A stretch of 64,000 nucleotides of DNA from a virus, in the IMG/VR virus record IMGVR_UViG_3300042542_003555, positions 64,001-128,000 of that record, one strand, 5' to 3'. The notes beneath the pieces were generated by a model that was given only the letters and a program-made list of their open reading frames with translations, was not told the origin of the DNA and did no database searches. The position numbers and the translations under genes were made by a program. Every line of letters begins with the position of its first letter. The first letter of the stretch is position 1. Shown in pieces: positions 12,822-17,520 of the stretch.

Positions 12822-12829
12822 TATTTATA
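12822..12829 (-). promoter_or_regulatory. T4-type late promoter overlapping the rubrerythrin stop codon
   Basis: Exact TATAAATA on the minus strand. Confidence 0.7.
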
Positions 12830-13259
12830 GTTGTCCTGCTTTGTAAGCATCAAGAGTTTTCTTGAACTTACCTGCATGAGAACGTTCTGCTTTCGCTAAT
12901 GTTTCAAACCAATCTGCAATTTCATCAAAGCCTTCTTCACGGGCTGTCTTAGCCATACCTGGATACATATCGGTGTATTCGTGAGTCTCACCTTCAATGG
13001 CAGATTCAAGTGCCTCTGCAACATTACTTACTTGCATACCTGTTGCAGGATCGCCAGCGGAACCATTCAACAAATATTCCATATGACCGTGTGCATGTCC
13101 AGTTTCACCTTCTGCTGTGTGACGAAATACCGCAGCAACTTCTGGTGAACCTTCAATGTCAGCCATGTTTGCAAAATATAGATAACGGCGATTTGCTTGT
13201 GATTCACCTGCAAATGCTTCTTTCAAATTCAATTCAGTTTTAGTTCCTTTGACGCTCAT
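12825..13259 (-). CDS. rbr: Rubrerythrin, short form without rubredoxin domain
   Basis: [43 protein letters not shown] di-iron motifs. Confidence 0.95.
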
Positions 13260-13271
13260 AGTGTCTCCTAA

Positions 13272-13346
13272 TTAACGATTCGCAATATACATTGTGATTT
13301 CAAAACCAAAACGCATATCGTTTGCTTGTGGTGTCATCCAGGTCAT
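13272..13346 (-). CDS. pqqA: PQQ precursor peptide PqqA (MTWMTPQANDMRFGFEITMYIANR)
   Basis: 24 aa with W..P..D.RFGFEITMY.ANR and the E-x-x-x-Y core; AGGAG RBS; below the ORF-track cutoff. Confidence 0.95.
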   Translation of the reverse strand: MTWMTPQANDMRFGFEITMYIANR

Positions 13347-13392: not shown

Positions 13393-13422
13393 ATTATATA
13401 TCGACTTGATGGGATTTGTCAA
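13393..13422 (-). promoter_or_regulatory. Sigma70-type promoter for pqqA-rbr
   Basis: TTGACA-18 bp-TATAAT. Confidence 0.8.
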
Positions 13423-13440
13423 GTAGTGAAAATCATGATT

Positions 13441-13740
13441 ATAAGCTAGTTGATTCTGTTGCCAAGTTCAACTAGCAAAACTCCGGTCAGTGTTTAAGCT
13501 GCCAGTGCGAACTTTTCATCGTTTGCATTTATGGATTTGCTTGATTTACGGTCATCGCCTACCGTGTTGTCCATATCCTTACTCATTGCCCTGTCGAAAC
13601 CAGGTCAGCCCCATCAGAAGCACATTAGGGTGTAGCAGCCCCACCAGGATCCCTACTGTAGTGGTTAATGTGCTTTTGGTGGAGCTGGGCGGAATCGAAC
13701 CGCCGTCCAGAACACCTTTCATTCTACTTCATACAACAAT
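13441..13740 (-). ncRNA. ssrA: Circularly permuted (two-piece) tmRNA, tag ANDEKFALAA
   Basis: Acceptor piece (T-arm GGCGG-TTCGATT-CCGCC, then CAGCTCCACCA ending 13677) precedes the GGGGCTG 5' end (13612); G3-U pair; tag frame 13526-13494; outer ends approximate. Confidence 0.93.
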
Positions 13741-13744
13741 AAGG

Positions 13745-13835
13745 TACACACTATGTAGGATTCCCACCTACGTTACCGACCAGCGGTATCTTAGTTTATC
13801 CGTCGCCTTTGCCACTTCTAGATGAATAGTGTGTA
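13745..13835 (-). ncRNA. tRNA-like structured RNA with non-canonical anticodon arm
   Basis: 10-bp closing stem TACACACTAT/ATAGTGTGTA, D-loop-like AGAAGTGGCAA, T-arm-like GTAGG-TGGGAAT-CCTAC. Confidence 0.6.
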
Positions 13836-14002: not shown

Positions 14003-14334
14003 TTTAGTTCCTATTTAAATGGCCAATTGTTTATAGAAATAACAATTATAAAAATCAACCAACCAACTCTTAGAACATTATCAAATATTCGTTCGTATGT
14101 GTCAATTAATCTTTTTTTTCTTCTCTCATTATGTATTTCGCTCATTGATAGCCTTTTCAACAAAATAGATATTTACTGCATTACCAAAAGTAAGCAGAAA
14201 AAACATTACTAGTCCCATAGTGGTCTCCTATTCATCTATTAACATCCAAATGCAAAAACATATTAAACAACCAACTATTAGACCTACGTGGAAGCCTAAA
14301 ATATATTGCATTGTAACATTATTCTATTGGAAAG

Positions 14335-14997
14335 TCAATATTTATTCTGGTGATAATACTTAATAGCTTCTGCTAAACCGTTTAGATGATCTTCGGTTTT
14401 CTCTTTGAAGATAATTGGTGGTGAGTCTTTGACTGCCATAATAATAATAAGATTGTTAATTGGGGTGCCAATTAGTTCTTCATACATCAAAGAGTATGCA
14501 GTAGTTTGCCAAAAGTATTCAAGAATATCATCACGTTTCTTTGCTCTACTGGCAGTCTTAAAGTCAATGATAGATAGTTCACCTTCATATTCTGCTATAC
14601 AGTCTACTCTGCCAGCCATACCTATCGTTGTAGACCAAAGTGCTTGCTCTTGATAGTGTATGTTGTTTATATAGTTCAGATAAGGCTTGATTGAGAGGAA
14701 ATACTCAACAGCATCAGGCATGACACCTTTCATATAATCCTGTTTGTTGTTAAGATAAGCCTCGCAGATAGTGTGTACATTAGTGCCACGTGAGGTTGCT
14801 TGTTTGGAGATACGATTGGCTTCTTCTTCACCAACTCTTGCTCTCCATTCCATAATGGCTTTCTTTTTCTTGGCACCAACAACAGTAGTTACAGATGGTA
14901 GCTTAGTACCATCTGGCAACTTGTAATATCTTTTACCGTCAGGAAAAGTTTCTGATTGAAGGTCTTGTATTTCTTTAGGTGGGCAATAGTTAAACAT
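14335..14997 (-). CDS. PD-(D/E)XK exonuclease of T4-like phages
   Basis: PSVTTV, RGT.VH, AGRVDC, IIDFKT, Q..AY. Confidence 0.9.
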   Translation of the reverse strand: MFNYCPPKEIQDLQSETFPDGKRYYKLPDGTKLPSVTTVVGAKKKKAIMEWRARVGEEEANRISKQATSRGTNVHTICEAYLNNKQDYMKGVMPDAVEYFLSIKPYLNYINNIHYQEQALWSTTIGMAGRVDCIAEYEGELSIIDFKTASRAKKRDDILEYFWQTTAYSLMYEELIGTPINNLIIIMAVKDSPPIIFKEKTEDHLNGLAEAIKYYHQNKY

Positions 14998-15653
14998 TAT
15001 TTAAATCCAGGACCACCAACCCAAAGTACCAATGAACGACGAATACCTTTAGTGACTGGTGTAACACGATGTAATGTCCATGATGGGAAGAACCATGCAC
15101 GGCCTTTTTTCTGTTCTAAGTTTCTCACTTCATCATTACCTGTTTTAACATGTAATTCACCACCTTCAAATTCAGATGGGTCGCTTAGTAACAATGACAT
15201 GGACAACTTACGATATGGTGAGTTACCACCAGCAAGAGAGGTATCGGTGTGCCAATCATAGTGACCTTGATCATGCTGTGTGTAAGAACCAAGTTGTGCT
15301 AGTTCATAACAACCAGTCAAATCAAACTGAAAGAATTGTCTATTGGCAGACCAAACCGCATTGGTTATCTTTTGCCAAATATGGTCATTCTTACTATCAA
15401 CACCCATCCATGCAATGTTTGTTCGACGGAATTTTGGATTTACTTCTCCATTAGAACCATATCCTACTTGTGCTGCTGTCTGATCGTGCCATTCTGGTCG
15501 TGATAAAACATAATTAATGTCATCATCAGAAAGAAAACCTTCCCACCAGCACAAGTCATCTTTACCTGGTGCACTAAAAGGTGCAATTGGGTATACCAAC
15601 CCATGTAGAATTACATCACGTTTCACTTTTATCTCACTTTCTATACATGTCAA
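14997..15653 (-). CDS. 2OG-Fe(II) oxygenase (PKHD-type)
   Basis: YDWHTD, RKLS, FEGGEL, FPS..LHRVTPVTKG.R.SLV.W. Confidence 0.92.
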   Translation of the reverse strand: MTCIESEIKVKRDVILHGLVYPIAPFSAPGKDDLCWWEGFLSDDDINYVLSRPEWHDQTAAQVGYGSNGEVNPKFRRTNIAWMGVDSKNDHIWQKITNAVWSANRQFFQFDLTGCYELAQLGSYTQHDQGHYDWHTDTSLAGGNSPYRKLSMSLLLSDPSEFEGGELHVKTGNDEVRNLEQKKGRAWFFPSWTLHRVTPVTKGIRRSLVLWVGGPGFK

Positions 15654-16227
15654 TCATACGGTTTCTAACAAATGGATGTTGTCTTTCCCATCTTTTATCA
15701 CCAGCGAATTCTGCAAAAGGTCCACTCGCACGAACAAAATGACAGAATACTTGTCCAGAATAATAATCTTCGGGACCATCACATGGTTTTCTCCAGTGCA
15801 ACAAATCACATCCTTTATACACAACACCATCACCTTCAGCTAAATCAAAACGATGTCCTGCCATATATATGGGCCACGAATAGTGATGAGAACGACCTAG
15901 TTGTATTGTAACAGATATCTCACATGAAGGTCTATCAGAATGTATCTTCAGTTCATCACCATTGCCATATAATCTAGCATAAGAATAGGTAGGAATGAGT
16001 TCTTCTTCAAGAGCATCTTCAAGTCTTGGCCATACTTGTTCTAGGATTGTTTCGCAGGCAAATTCACCATGACCCGCTGCTTTTGAATTTGGTATCTGTG
16101 GATCACCACCTACTCCAAATGCACCTTTAACTGAGAGTAGGTGGGTTAGAAACTTAGATACATCAGGACTGACGAGTCCTCTGAAGTGTAAGACACCTTT
16201 ACTATTAAAATATTCACGGGAACTCAT
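15634..16227 (-). CDS. 2OG-Fe(II) oxygenase
   Basis: PTYSYARLY, L..HSDRPSCEISVT, GD.V.Y.G....HWR. Confidence 0.88.
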   Translation of the reverse strand: MSSREYFNSKGVLHFRGLVSPDVSKFLTHLLSVKGAFGVGGDPQIPNSKAAGHGEFACETILEQVWPRLEDALEEELIPTYSYARLYGNGDELKIHSDRPSCEISVTIQLGRSHHYSWPIYMAGHRFDLAEGDGVVYKGCDLLHWRKPCDGPEDYYSGQVFCHFVRASGPFAEFAGDKRWERQHPFVRNRMIDMYRK

Positions 16228-16255
16228 AAAATTTCCTTTCTATTAATTATTTTTT

Positions 16256-16927
16256 TCATGATGTAACTCTACGAACTCGACCAACAGGAGAATTATTTAC
16301 AAATAATTTATTTACAAAGAAAACAAGCGTAAGTCTTGAATCTTGACCTTCGCCAAAGAAGTCTTGTGCTGCGTGATGTAGATGTGAGTCAAAAGCAATT
16401 AAGCGATTATATATGTTCGAAATACGTATCGTTTCTTCAAACTGCGAATTATGTTCTTTTTTATATTGCTTTGCGTTTTCAATACTCATCTTGTTTAGAT
16501 AACTATCTTCTTTATATTGAGTGTTTCGATGAGCATGTTGAAGCACATTTGCTTTCTGACGATAAATTGATGTGCCCCCATTTAAATTAGAATTTGGGGT
16601 GAGATAAATGATACCCGTTACTTGTGATGTTTCTTGATCTGAATGAATCCAACCAGAATCGTAACCTTCATGTACGATTTGAAAATTCATCGAAACATTC
16701 CATTCTATTTGTTCTTCACGAAGTTCATAAAACTGCGAAAAAAACTTTCTGCACGTTAGTTGAAAAAAAGAATCATCAAGTTCATGAATATAATTTGACC
16801 TTAATCCTGGCCAGCGCCCCTTAGAATCAGGTAAATATTCTTGTTGTAAAGCCCATCTGCGTACTTTATCTGGTTCATCGAAGAAATTATCTAGAACAGT
16901 AACAGGAATTGTTTGCATGTATTGCAT
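16256..16927 (-). CDS. 2OG-Fe(II) oxygenase-like protein
   Basis: DNFF..PD, WPG.R, WIHSD, YL.P...GT, N.YNRL..FD...H, RLTLVFF. Confidence 0.85.
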   Translation of the reverse strand: MQYMQTIPVTVLDNFFDEPDKVRRWALQQEYLPDSKGRWPGLRSNYIHELDDSFFQLTCRKFFSQFYELREEQIEWNVSMNFQIVHEGYDSGWIHSDQETSQVTGIIYLTPNSNLNGGTSIYRQKANVLQHAHRNTQYKEDSYLNKMSIENAKQYKKEHNSQFEETIRISNIYNRLIAFDSHLHHAAQDFFGEGQDSRLTLVFFVNKLFVNNSPVGRVRRVTS

Positions 16928-16929
16928 AA

Positions 16930-17520
16930 TTATTTTTGTGTGAAATTAACGTCAAATGCGATTGAGATTCTATCTTGATCGGTCAAATTAGGTAAAACAT
17001 AATGTTTAATCCACGAGGGCATAATAATCAACTTACACGGTTCTGGTTTATAATAGACGTTTGACATCGAGCGTTCAATTGATGCTTCTTTAAACGGTTG
17101 TTCAGCGTAGTGATATGAGAATTGTTGAGAAGGATGTTCTAATACGAGATCGCCACAATTTTCATGTCCAGTCACATAGTATACACCAGAAAAGGTCCAA
17201 CCTCTATGGGTATGCGGATTATTTGTGTGACCTTTACCATTAATGTTTACCCAGCAATTATCGATGTTTAATTTTATATCATCTCTAAAATTAAAACCTT
17301 TATGAAGTGTTTCAAGCCGTTGATTGACATTATAAAACAATTCATTTAAAGCTGGAATATAACCAGTTAACTGTGTGCTATGCCATCCACCATAGTTTGA
17401 AAAATGTGATGTTTCACCTTGTTGTTGACGAAGATCGTAACAGAATTTTTTGATCGATTCGTTATCAATTTCAAGCATATCAACAGCAACGGTTGACACA
17501 AAAATATTTTCAACTAGCAT
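16930..17520 (-). CDS. TIGR02466-like 2OG-Fe(II) oxygenase
   Basis: SN.GGW.S, W.NIN, HTH, SGVYY, PSW..H.V.PN, RISIAF. Confidence 0.88.
   Translation of the reverse strand: MLVENIFVSTVAVDMLEIDNESIKKFCYDLRQQQGETSHFSNYGGWHSTQLTGYIPALNELFYNVNQRLETLHKGFNFRDDIKLNIDNCWVNINGKGHTNNPHTHRGWTFSGVYYVTGHENCGDLVLEHPSQQFSYHYAEQPFKEASIERSMSNVYYKPEPCKLIIMPSWIKHYVLPNLTDQDRISIAFDVNFTQK

Follow-up and report, generated by a model that had tools for sequence, protein, structure and literature searches.

The window analysed here, a stretch of 64,000 nucleotides, carries on its minus strand a complete, circularly permuted tmRNA gene of the betaproteobacterial type, resident in a phage genome. Very probably it encodes a functional two-piece tmRNA (ssrA), as its helices are maintained among related phages and its tag is maintained as a peptide. 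A permuted phage tmRNA is not new as a kind, and the gene is a further beta-type member from a large uncultured clade; the unusual part of the locus is the spacer between the two pieces, which bears cargo.

Structure of the permuted gene

The only RNA gene that ARAGORN called in the window is a permuted tmRNA at 13403-13769(-), whose tag is ANDEKFALAA. Two Rfam models matched the same place well above their cut-offs: RF01850 (beta_tmRNA) at 13427-13790(-), with 153.9 bits against a gathering cut-off of 84, and RF04321 (tmRNA_permuted), with 156.3 bits against 47, the E-values for the gene being 2e-47 and 4e-31. Both the match to the models and the pairing of the helices are far beyond chance. 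The label 'Permuted' reflects a 3' tRNA domain at positions 55-93 of the gene and a 5' domain at 158-184, and the Rfam alignments concur: the T-arm, the 3' strand of the acceptor stem and the CCA come first, and the 5' acceptor strand and the tag frame follow downstream. The permuted call and the two model scores bear out the sequence-only reading, which had placed an acceptor piece before a coding piece and had named ARAGORN and permuted tmRNA models as a check.

By the Rfam alignment, the acceptor piece occupies 13677-13738 (this and all following features of the gene are on the minus strand). It opens with the 5' strand of P2a, UGUUGU (13738-13733), and continues with the proximal strand of P2, UGUUCUG (13714-13708), a T-arm, GGCGG-UUCGAUU-CCGCC (13704-13688), the 3' acceptor strand CAGCUCC (13687-13681) and an encoded ACCA (13680-13677), the end of the piece at 13677 reading ...CAGCUCCACCA. 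The intervening segment of 64 nt (13613-13676), delimited by reading the sequence and by its fold, is closed by a 10-bp stem, AAGCACAUUA/UAAUGUGCUU (13675-13666 with 13627-13618), seen in the sequence and in covariation; CUGAU stands between this stem and G1 of the coding piece.

The coding piece starts GGGGCUGACCUGGUUUCGACAGGGCA and runs for about 170 nt, from 13612 to about 13445. Rfam, ARAGORN and covariation together delimit the piece and its elements, which are the 5' acceptor strand GGGGCUG (13612-13606), the sequence GGUUUCGAC (13601-13593), the strands CAGGGCA (13593-13587) and ACAACA (13570-13565), a hairpin (13564-13549), and a 3' hairpin/pseudoknot (13490-13445), the 3' end of the RNA near 13445 being a 9-bp hairpin with a pseudoknot partner. 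The resume context AUAAAU-GCA leads into the ten-codon frame and stop at 13494-13526, GCA AAC GAU GAA AAG UUC GCA CUG GCA GCU UAA, called by ARAGORN as ANDEKFALAA*. The acceptor stem GGGGCUG/CAGCUCC has 7 bp with the G3:U alanine identity pair, a discriminator A and the encoded CCA, and the helices that join the pieces, UGUUCUG/CAGGGCA and UGUUGU/ACAACA, are pairs in the Rfam alignment. All of these details (the exact extent and closing stem of the intervening segment, the acceptor stem with its G3:U pair, both cross-piece pairings, the tag, and the short coding piece) had been proposed from the letters beforehand, and each agrees with what the programs and the minus-strand sequence give.

Conservation of the structure and the tag

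We measured covariation in 56 distinct phage copies, 67-87% identical to the window copy, with the structure for counting pairs derived from the window sequence, itself one of the aligned set. Paired cells made up 89.0% of the total. Shuffling gave 74.5%, and none of 500 shuffles reached the observed value; with partners slid the figure was 40-51%, a control that overstates the contrast in percentage paired, because the structure was drawn from one aligned sequence, but does not overstate the contrast in double changes. Changes on both sides were found at 43 of the 57 pairs. The acceptor stem and T-arm were paired in 100% of cells, with G3:U in 56 of 56 copies; UGUUCUG/CAGGGCA was paired in 99% and UGUUGU/ACAACA in 93%, both with compensatory changes. 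All 10 pairs of the stem that closes the intervening segment covary, with 95% of cells paired, and GGUUUCGAC, the SmpB-contact sequence, is invariant in the aligned copies.

The tag is conserved in a different manner. Among 48 ten-residue phage tags, Leu8 is encoded by CTT, TTG, TTA, CTA and CTG, and Ala7, Ala9 and Ala10 by four codons each. Position 6 is aromatic in 47 of the 48 and residues 4 and 5 vary freely, yet the peptide pattern AND..(F/Y)ALAA is constant across the set despite the synonymous codon turnover. The tag is thus under selection at the peptide level, read as protein, and synonymous turnover under a constant peptide speaks against both a relic and a pure SmpB decoy.

Residence in the phage genome

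The source record has 160,983 bp, is 96% complete by CheckV and T4-like, and has 36.5% G+C and 25 tRNA genes; the tmRNA is present in one copy per genome. Its neighbours in the window include a T4 gp59-type helicase loader, NrdA, a SleB-like hydrolase, a PD-(D/E)XK nuclease, rubrerythrin and several 2OG-Fe(II) oxygenases. The gp59 and NrdA genes, the 2OG oxygenases, the 25 tRNAs and the CheckV estimate identify the record as a phage. Runs of 2OG-Fe(II) oxygenase-type genes are typical of aquatic T4-like phages; four tandem genes at 14997-17520 (-) adjoin the PD-(D/E)XK gene, and at least one of them is a 2OG-Fe(II) oxygenase by Pfam. Elsewhere in the genome (157732-157842 in whole-genome numbering), a 111-nt spacer between tRNA-Asn and tRNA-Ala has the appearance of a tRNA-Tyr-like gene that was left uncalled; it shows a long variable arm, an encoded CCA and the GUA anticodon in the context CUGUAAAUC.

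We searched IMG/VR with a pattern that joins the T-arm and CCA, across a gap, to the start of the coding piece. It recovered the permuted order in at least 217 contigs, of which 69 fell in a gap window of 40-70 nt, 35 in one of 10-39 nt and 113 in one of 71-100 nt. Synteny was assessed by tblastn of the window proteins against the first 69 of these contigs (gap 40-70 nt). The PD-(D/E)XK nuclease was found upstream in 33 of the 69 loci and, downstream, the SleB-like hydrolase in 48, orf73 in 39 and gp59 in 38, so that the order PD-(D/E)XK - tmRNA - SleB-like - orf73 - gp59 is conserved in 33-48 of them. Because the tmRNA keeps this position while the syntenic neighbours diverge to 30-92% identity with the window proteins, we consider the gene an old resident of the phage lineage.

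It is scarcely credible, given this recurrence, that host ssrA DNA was misassembled into phage DNA or that the gene is an att-site fragment from a temperate element. Such an origin might be suspected, as ssrA is a common integration site (PMC4383910) and the local G+C at the tmRNA, 46-49%, stands above the genome-wide 36.5%. However, raised G+C is normal in structured RNA, both pieces are complete, and the exact pattern with a 53-70-nt spacer was found in 0 of 185,579 species genomes. Dozens of independent metagenome contigs repeat the same order and neighbours, which also speaks against the assembly rearrangement that the sequence-only reading had named as a possible source of error. We ruled out a chimera or att fragment on the grounds of complete pieces, recurrent synteny and the absence of the pattern from species genomes.

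Flanking sequences

Many relatives carry a consensus TTGACA-17-TATAAT that ends a few bases before the acceptor piece, and in these the 5' end of the acceptor piece would be the transcript start. By consensus match, and unlike many relatives, the window copy lacks a strong sigma70 promoter immediately upstream; it likewise differs from the RF01850 model, which includes a promoter there. The nearest strong sigma70-like promoter upstream, TTGACA-17-GATAAT at 14077-14105(-), is a consensus match only and is a possible source of a precursor, which would run through two small ORFs.

What stands in place of the adjacent promoter is a structured element of 91 nt (13745-13835, minus strand), recognised from its fold, in which a 10-bp stem, UACACACUAU/AUAGUGUGUA, surrounds about 71 nt. 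It folds at -26.9 kcal/mol (z -2.1), ends 6 nt before the acceptor piece and contains a T-arm-like hairpin, GUAGG-UGGGAAU-CCUAC; its stem resembles the hairpin cassettes discussed below in both sequence and position. Because relatives have at this position a short hairpin only, with the same stem sequence (e.g. CCACUAUAAUAGUGG) and overlapping the sigma70 -10 box, the element seems to be that hairpin in a filled form, built like the spacer cassettes. A search of IMG/VR found no second copy of it. With the adjacent promoter missing and this element in its place, some 5' processing of the window tmRNA precursor is likely. In three other loci (L009, L028 and L050), an element of roughly 70 nt with a 7-bp closing stem and a T-loop-like motif, GGUUCGAAUCC, lies between promoter and tmRNA; ARAGORN made no tRNA call for it in L009 or L028.

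The downstream boundary is formed by a promoter matching the consensus, TTGACA-18-TATAAT (13422-13393), and a terminator-like hairpin evident in the sequence (13389-13367), both on the minus strand. Behind this promoter and directly downstream of the tmRNA, on the same strand, lie pqqA, of 24 codons (MTWMTPQANDMRFGFEITMYIANR, 13272-13346), and then the rubrerythrin gene (12825-13259). In nine related loci (L018, L020, L024, L025, L034, L044, L058, L067 and L070), pqqA adjoins the tmRNA on either side.

Relation to other tmRNAs and the likely host

The gene shares its order with the betaproteobacterial two-piece tmRNA (RF01850), reportedly described by Sharkady and Williams in 2004, as well as the G3:U acceptor stem, the T-arm, GGUUUCGAC, the cross-piece helices, the hairpin before the tag, the AND..FALAA type of tag and the 3' hairpin. 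The likeness extends to the closing stem of the spacer, AAG.ACAUU/..GUGU..U, and to YUGAU before G1. The window gene differs in being viral, with no smpB nearby. We compared it with 401 genomes drawn from the order to which a Herbaspirillum genome belongs; this is presumably the GTDB Burkholderiales, in which the former Betaproteobacteria are included. The best bacterial matches were all two-piece, with tags such as ANDENFALAA, ANDESYALAA, ANDERFALAA and ANDEQFAIAA. The closest, from a 2.0-Mb genome with a local G+C of 40%, is 82% identical over the coding piece and has the tag ANDENFALAA. Against beta_tmRNA the phage gene scores 153.9 bits, compared with 111.9 for Duganella and 102.8 for Herbaspirillum.

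The host is most likely a methylotrophic or other PQQ-using betaproteobacterium, such as a member of the Methylophilaceae. This best guess, still a guess, was made because pqqA adjoins the tmRNA and because T4-like, pqqA-bearing Methylophilaceae viruses of 35% G+C have been published from Lake Baikal (PMC7678222; tmRNA is not mentioned there). A search for PqqA (PF08042) gave no match in the five genomes with the closest tmRNAs and is uninformative, since the control gave no match either.

Two-piece tmRNAs of phages are already in the literature. Buchholz et al. 2022 (PMC9004378) reported a two-piece ssrA in Melnitz, a phage of OM43 (Methylophilales), and 402 phage genomes with tmRNA, comprising 133 unique structures of which 53 were permuted by ARAGORN; their supplement includes permuted copies in the Stenotrophomonas phages Mendera and Moby. 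A 2025 tmRNA database holds 79 unique phage sequences (PMC11915505). Melnitz and the pelagimyophages are likewise T4-like aquatic myophages of streamlined heterotrophs with a complete permuted ssrA (PMC9004378). The Melnitz gene, however, is of the alphaproteobacterial type with a glutamine riboswitch reported in its 3' domain, whereas the window gene is beta-type, and Rfam detected no riboswitch in it.

The Stenotrophomonas phages Marzo, Moby, Mendera and YB07 (Menderavirus, about 160 kb) have tmRNAs of permuted order with about 69% identity to ours in both pieces; the Marzo gene is annotated as tmRNA and is permuted by ARAGORN. Stenotrophomonas, the host, is a gammaproteobacterium with a one-piece tmRNA. 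The Menderavirus tmRNA too has a long intervening hairpin, of about 57 nt, but the genomes have 54% G+C, the gene lies inside a tRNA array and not in the gp59 neighbourhood, and the tag is longer (ANDDSYTVRIAA).

Exchange of tmRNA alleles among phages

The alleles of the tmRNA do not track the phage backbone: they are swapped among close relatives, and similar alleles are found in distant phages. In L044, the flank proteins are 80-92% identical to those of the window but the tmRNA is only 73% identical, with another architecture of the acceptor piece and a 13-residue tag. The reverse is seen in L011 and L021, which have the most similar tmRNAs (86-87%) between flanks of only 33-45% identity. 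The invariant blocks of 20-30 nt (from the T-arm to CCA, and GGGG..GGUUUCGAC) are obvious recombination points. In the comparison of L003-L071 with the window, the tags extend from ten residues (ANDEKFALAA, ANDNVWALAA, ANDYDLALAA) through 13 (ANDAYFGDERLAA) to about 28-31 by ARAGORN.

Maturation and function

If the RNA matures in the manner of the two-piece tmRNA of Caulobacter, reportedly characterized by Keiler, Shapiro and Williams in 2000, a single precursor would contain the acceptor piece with its encoded CCA, the 64-nt hairpin and the coding piece, possibly headed by the upstream hairpin element. Once the two pieces had paired via the acceptor stem and the two cross-piece helices, RNase P would cut 5' of G1 at 13612 and 3' trimming would free the CCA at 13677, releasing the hairpin. 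Host AlaRS would charge the G3:U acceptor, and host SmpB and EF-Tu would carry the RNA to stalled ribosomes, where translation would resume on GCA and append ANDEKFALAA, a ClpXP-type degron. A search for smpB in the phage genome, proposed with the sequence-only reading, came back negative: SmpB (PF01668) is absent from the 161-kb genome, with a control that was positive in 12 of 14 reference genomes. The host must therefore supply SmpB, AlaRS, EF-Tu, RNase P and the proteases, and function would depend on compatibility with its SmpB. The proposal that the phage maintains ribosome rescue remains the natural reading of a conserved structure and conserved tag coding. The part of it that concerns a benefit to the phage we infer from T4 biology: the phage probably keeps ribosomes recycling during host transcription shut-off, as truncated mRNAs pile up.

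Two other roles for the RNA have to be weighed against rescue. It might titrate host SmpB or block host trans-translation, as proposed for the gene of mycobacteriophage DS6A, which has a tRNA-like domain only. Such phage genes are on record (PMC4131195; PMC11915505), and a phage without its own SmpB is compatible with this role, but the window gene has a complete coding piece with its resume context, ten-codon frame and stop, and the constancy of the AND..(F/Y)ALAA peptide through synonymous turnover in 48 copies would be needless for a pure decoy. We rejected this role in view of the full coding piece and the peptide-level conservation of the tag, and consider it very improbable. It is also unlikely that the phage copy exists to evade host nucleases that cut the host tmRNA as a defence, a bypass that the sequence-only reading had suggested and to which nothing in the data points. 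The swapping of alleles seen in L044 and, reversed, in L011 and L021 would fit diversifying pressure of this kind, but recombination at the invariant blocks explains it equally well, and the variation lies in loops, tag residues 4 and 5 and the spacer, not in one defined target site. No such nuclease was identified here, and we know of no established host nuclease against tmRNA.

Cassettes in the intervening spacer

The bacterial beta-type spacers that we examined are plain hairpins, 24-46 nt long, such as AAGGACAUUC-CGCU-GAGUGUUUUU-GGAU. In contrast, the segment in the window has 64 nt with a conserved core of 42 nt, and 182 of the 217 phage copies (84%) have spacers of 53-100 nt between the same closing stem. 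An 'empty' hairpin form is present in some phage copies, such as L143 (AAAGCAUAUU-GUAU-AGUGUGUUU-CUGAU). The closing stem, AAGYACA.../...UGURCUU, is conserved around a core that is variable but conserved within a type. These inserts can be sorted into distinct types whose conservation exceeds that of the mature RNA surrounding them: the largest type is 94% identical where the mature RNA is 85%, another is 97% against 72%, and over the cassette types in other phages the identities are 90-97% for the cassettes and 72-85% for the mature tmRNA around them.

One type (type A, core GAAAGAAACCUCUNAGGGCU) was found in 49 contigs, within tmRNAs whose acceptor stems and T-arms differ considerably, and at four loci its place is between the CCA end of a tRNA and the 5' end of the tmRNA. 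Its 32 distinct copies share an invariant loop of 22 nt and show covariation in the inner stem. In the cultured-phage database, the only match to the type A cassette was one of 38 bases at 87%, located under the annotated SsrA of Pelagibacter phage Mosig and covering the first half of the query.

The 42-nt core of the window cassette (13626-13667, minus strand) has a single other copy in IMG/VR, 100% identical, in the spacer L100:2886-2954 between tRNA-Ser(tga) and tRNA-Ser(gct). This locus belongs to a 162-kb phage (IMGVR_UViG_3300008267_000003) whose core proteins are 37-54% identical to those of the window phage, and the closing stems of the two cassettes show two compensated pair differences. 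A looser IMG/VR pattern returned L100 again and nothing else, and the window spacer had no match in the cultured-phage database. The intervening segment of the window shares the build of these cassettes, being a hairpin that follows a CCA within a few bases and precedes the next 5' end of tRNA type; inter-tRNA spacers of similar stem-closed build occur in L100, L105 and L113. Four inter-tRNA spacers of 73-89 nt (L100:4449-4537, L105:6266-6340, L113:9071-9144 and L109:8018-8090), each with its own core, are built as CCA-UAUA..AACACAUU, about 40-50 nt, and AGUGUGUU..UAUAU, and none has an Rfam match.

Rfam gave no match to the spacer or the upstream element at E<=1 in the window stretch, nor at E<=0.1 in eight related loci. 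A likeness of the spacer to preQ1 riboswitches (GCUACACCCU) was dropped since Rfam did not report one, and a reading of the spacers as micro-ORFs was dropped since neither stop nor frame is conserved. The nearest analogy is provided by the stable RNAs species 1 and 2 of T4 (rnaC and rnaD), small non-tRNA RNAs that are co-transcribed with tRNAs and released by tRNA-processing enzymes. The cassettes differ from them in being shorter, in having a conserved closing stem directly on the CCA end, and in occurring also in the tmRNA spacer; we found no sequence or Rfam relation between the two.

These observations lead us to a tentative proposal, which we hold with some reserve: the tmRNA locus may also, or mainly, be a launch pad, with the excised 64-nt hairpin a functional 'CCA-anchored cassette' RNA and 13745-13835 a second. 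The 64-nt segment, and probably also the 91-nt element, would then be functional small RNAs of an undescribed family of stem-closed cassettes on CCA ends. T4-like water phages would position such cassettes within tRNA arrays as well as in the spacer of the tmRNA, where RNase P and 3' trimming would set them free, and would exchange them as units, the tmRNA gene doubling as a platform for their production. A 42-nt core that is fully identical in a phage with core proteins of 37-54% identity, between stems with compensated changes, speaks for this proposal, as do cassette types better conserved than the tmRNA that encloses them; high core identity could, however, also mean recent exchange by recombination at the invariant flanks and not function. 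The covarying inner stem and invariant loop of type A, and its four placements between a tRNA CCA and a tmRNA, also favour it, but the window cassette is present in two copies only, which puts its own fold beyond covariation testing, and its fold z of -1.5 is not exceptional. Although the predominance of long spacers in phages, beside the plain bacterial hairpins, favours cargo, the 'empty' phage copies indicate that such cargo is dispensable for the tmRNA, and the spacer has no Rfam family, known target or partner. On this evidence the cores would be either functional RNAs or recently exchanged units recombining at invariant flanks.

Biological significance

Our results show a beta-type two-piece ssrA in a large clade of freshwater or aquatic T4-like phages, most of them uncultured; there the gene is old, syntenic and under selection, and close relatives differ in their alleles and tags. 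Such a picture agrees with the idea that large lytic phages supply the upkeep of translation themselves. The Menderavirus phages, which are in culture, have a similarly long tmRNA spacer, which makes the idea of a functional spacer open to a test at the bench. Should the excised hairpins prove to be working RNAs, the processing of tRNA and tmRNA would offer phages a general route to small RNAs, and a part of the tmRNA precursor long treated as waste would have a use.
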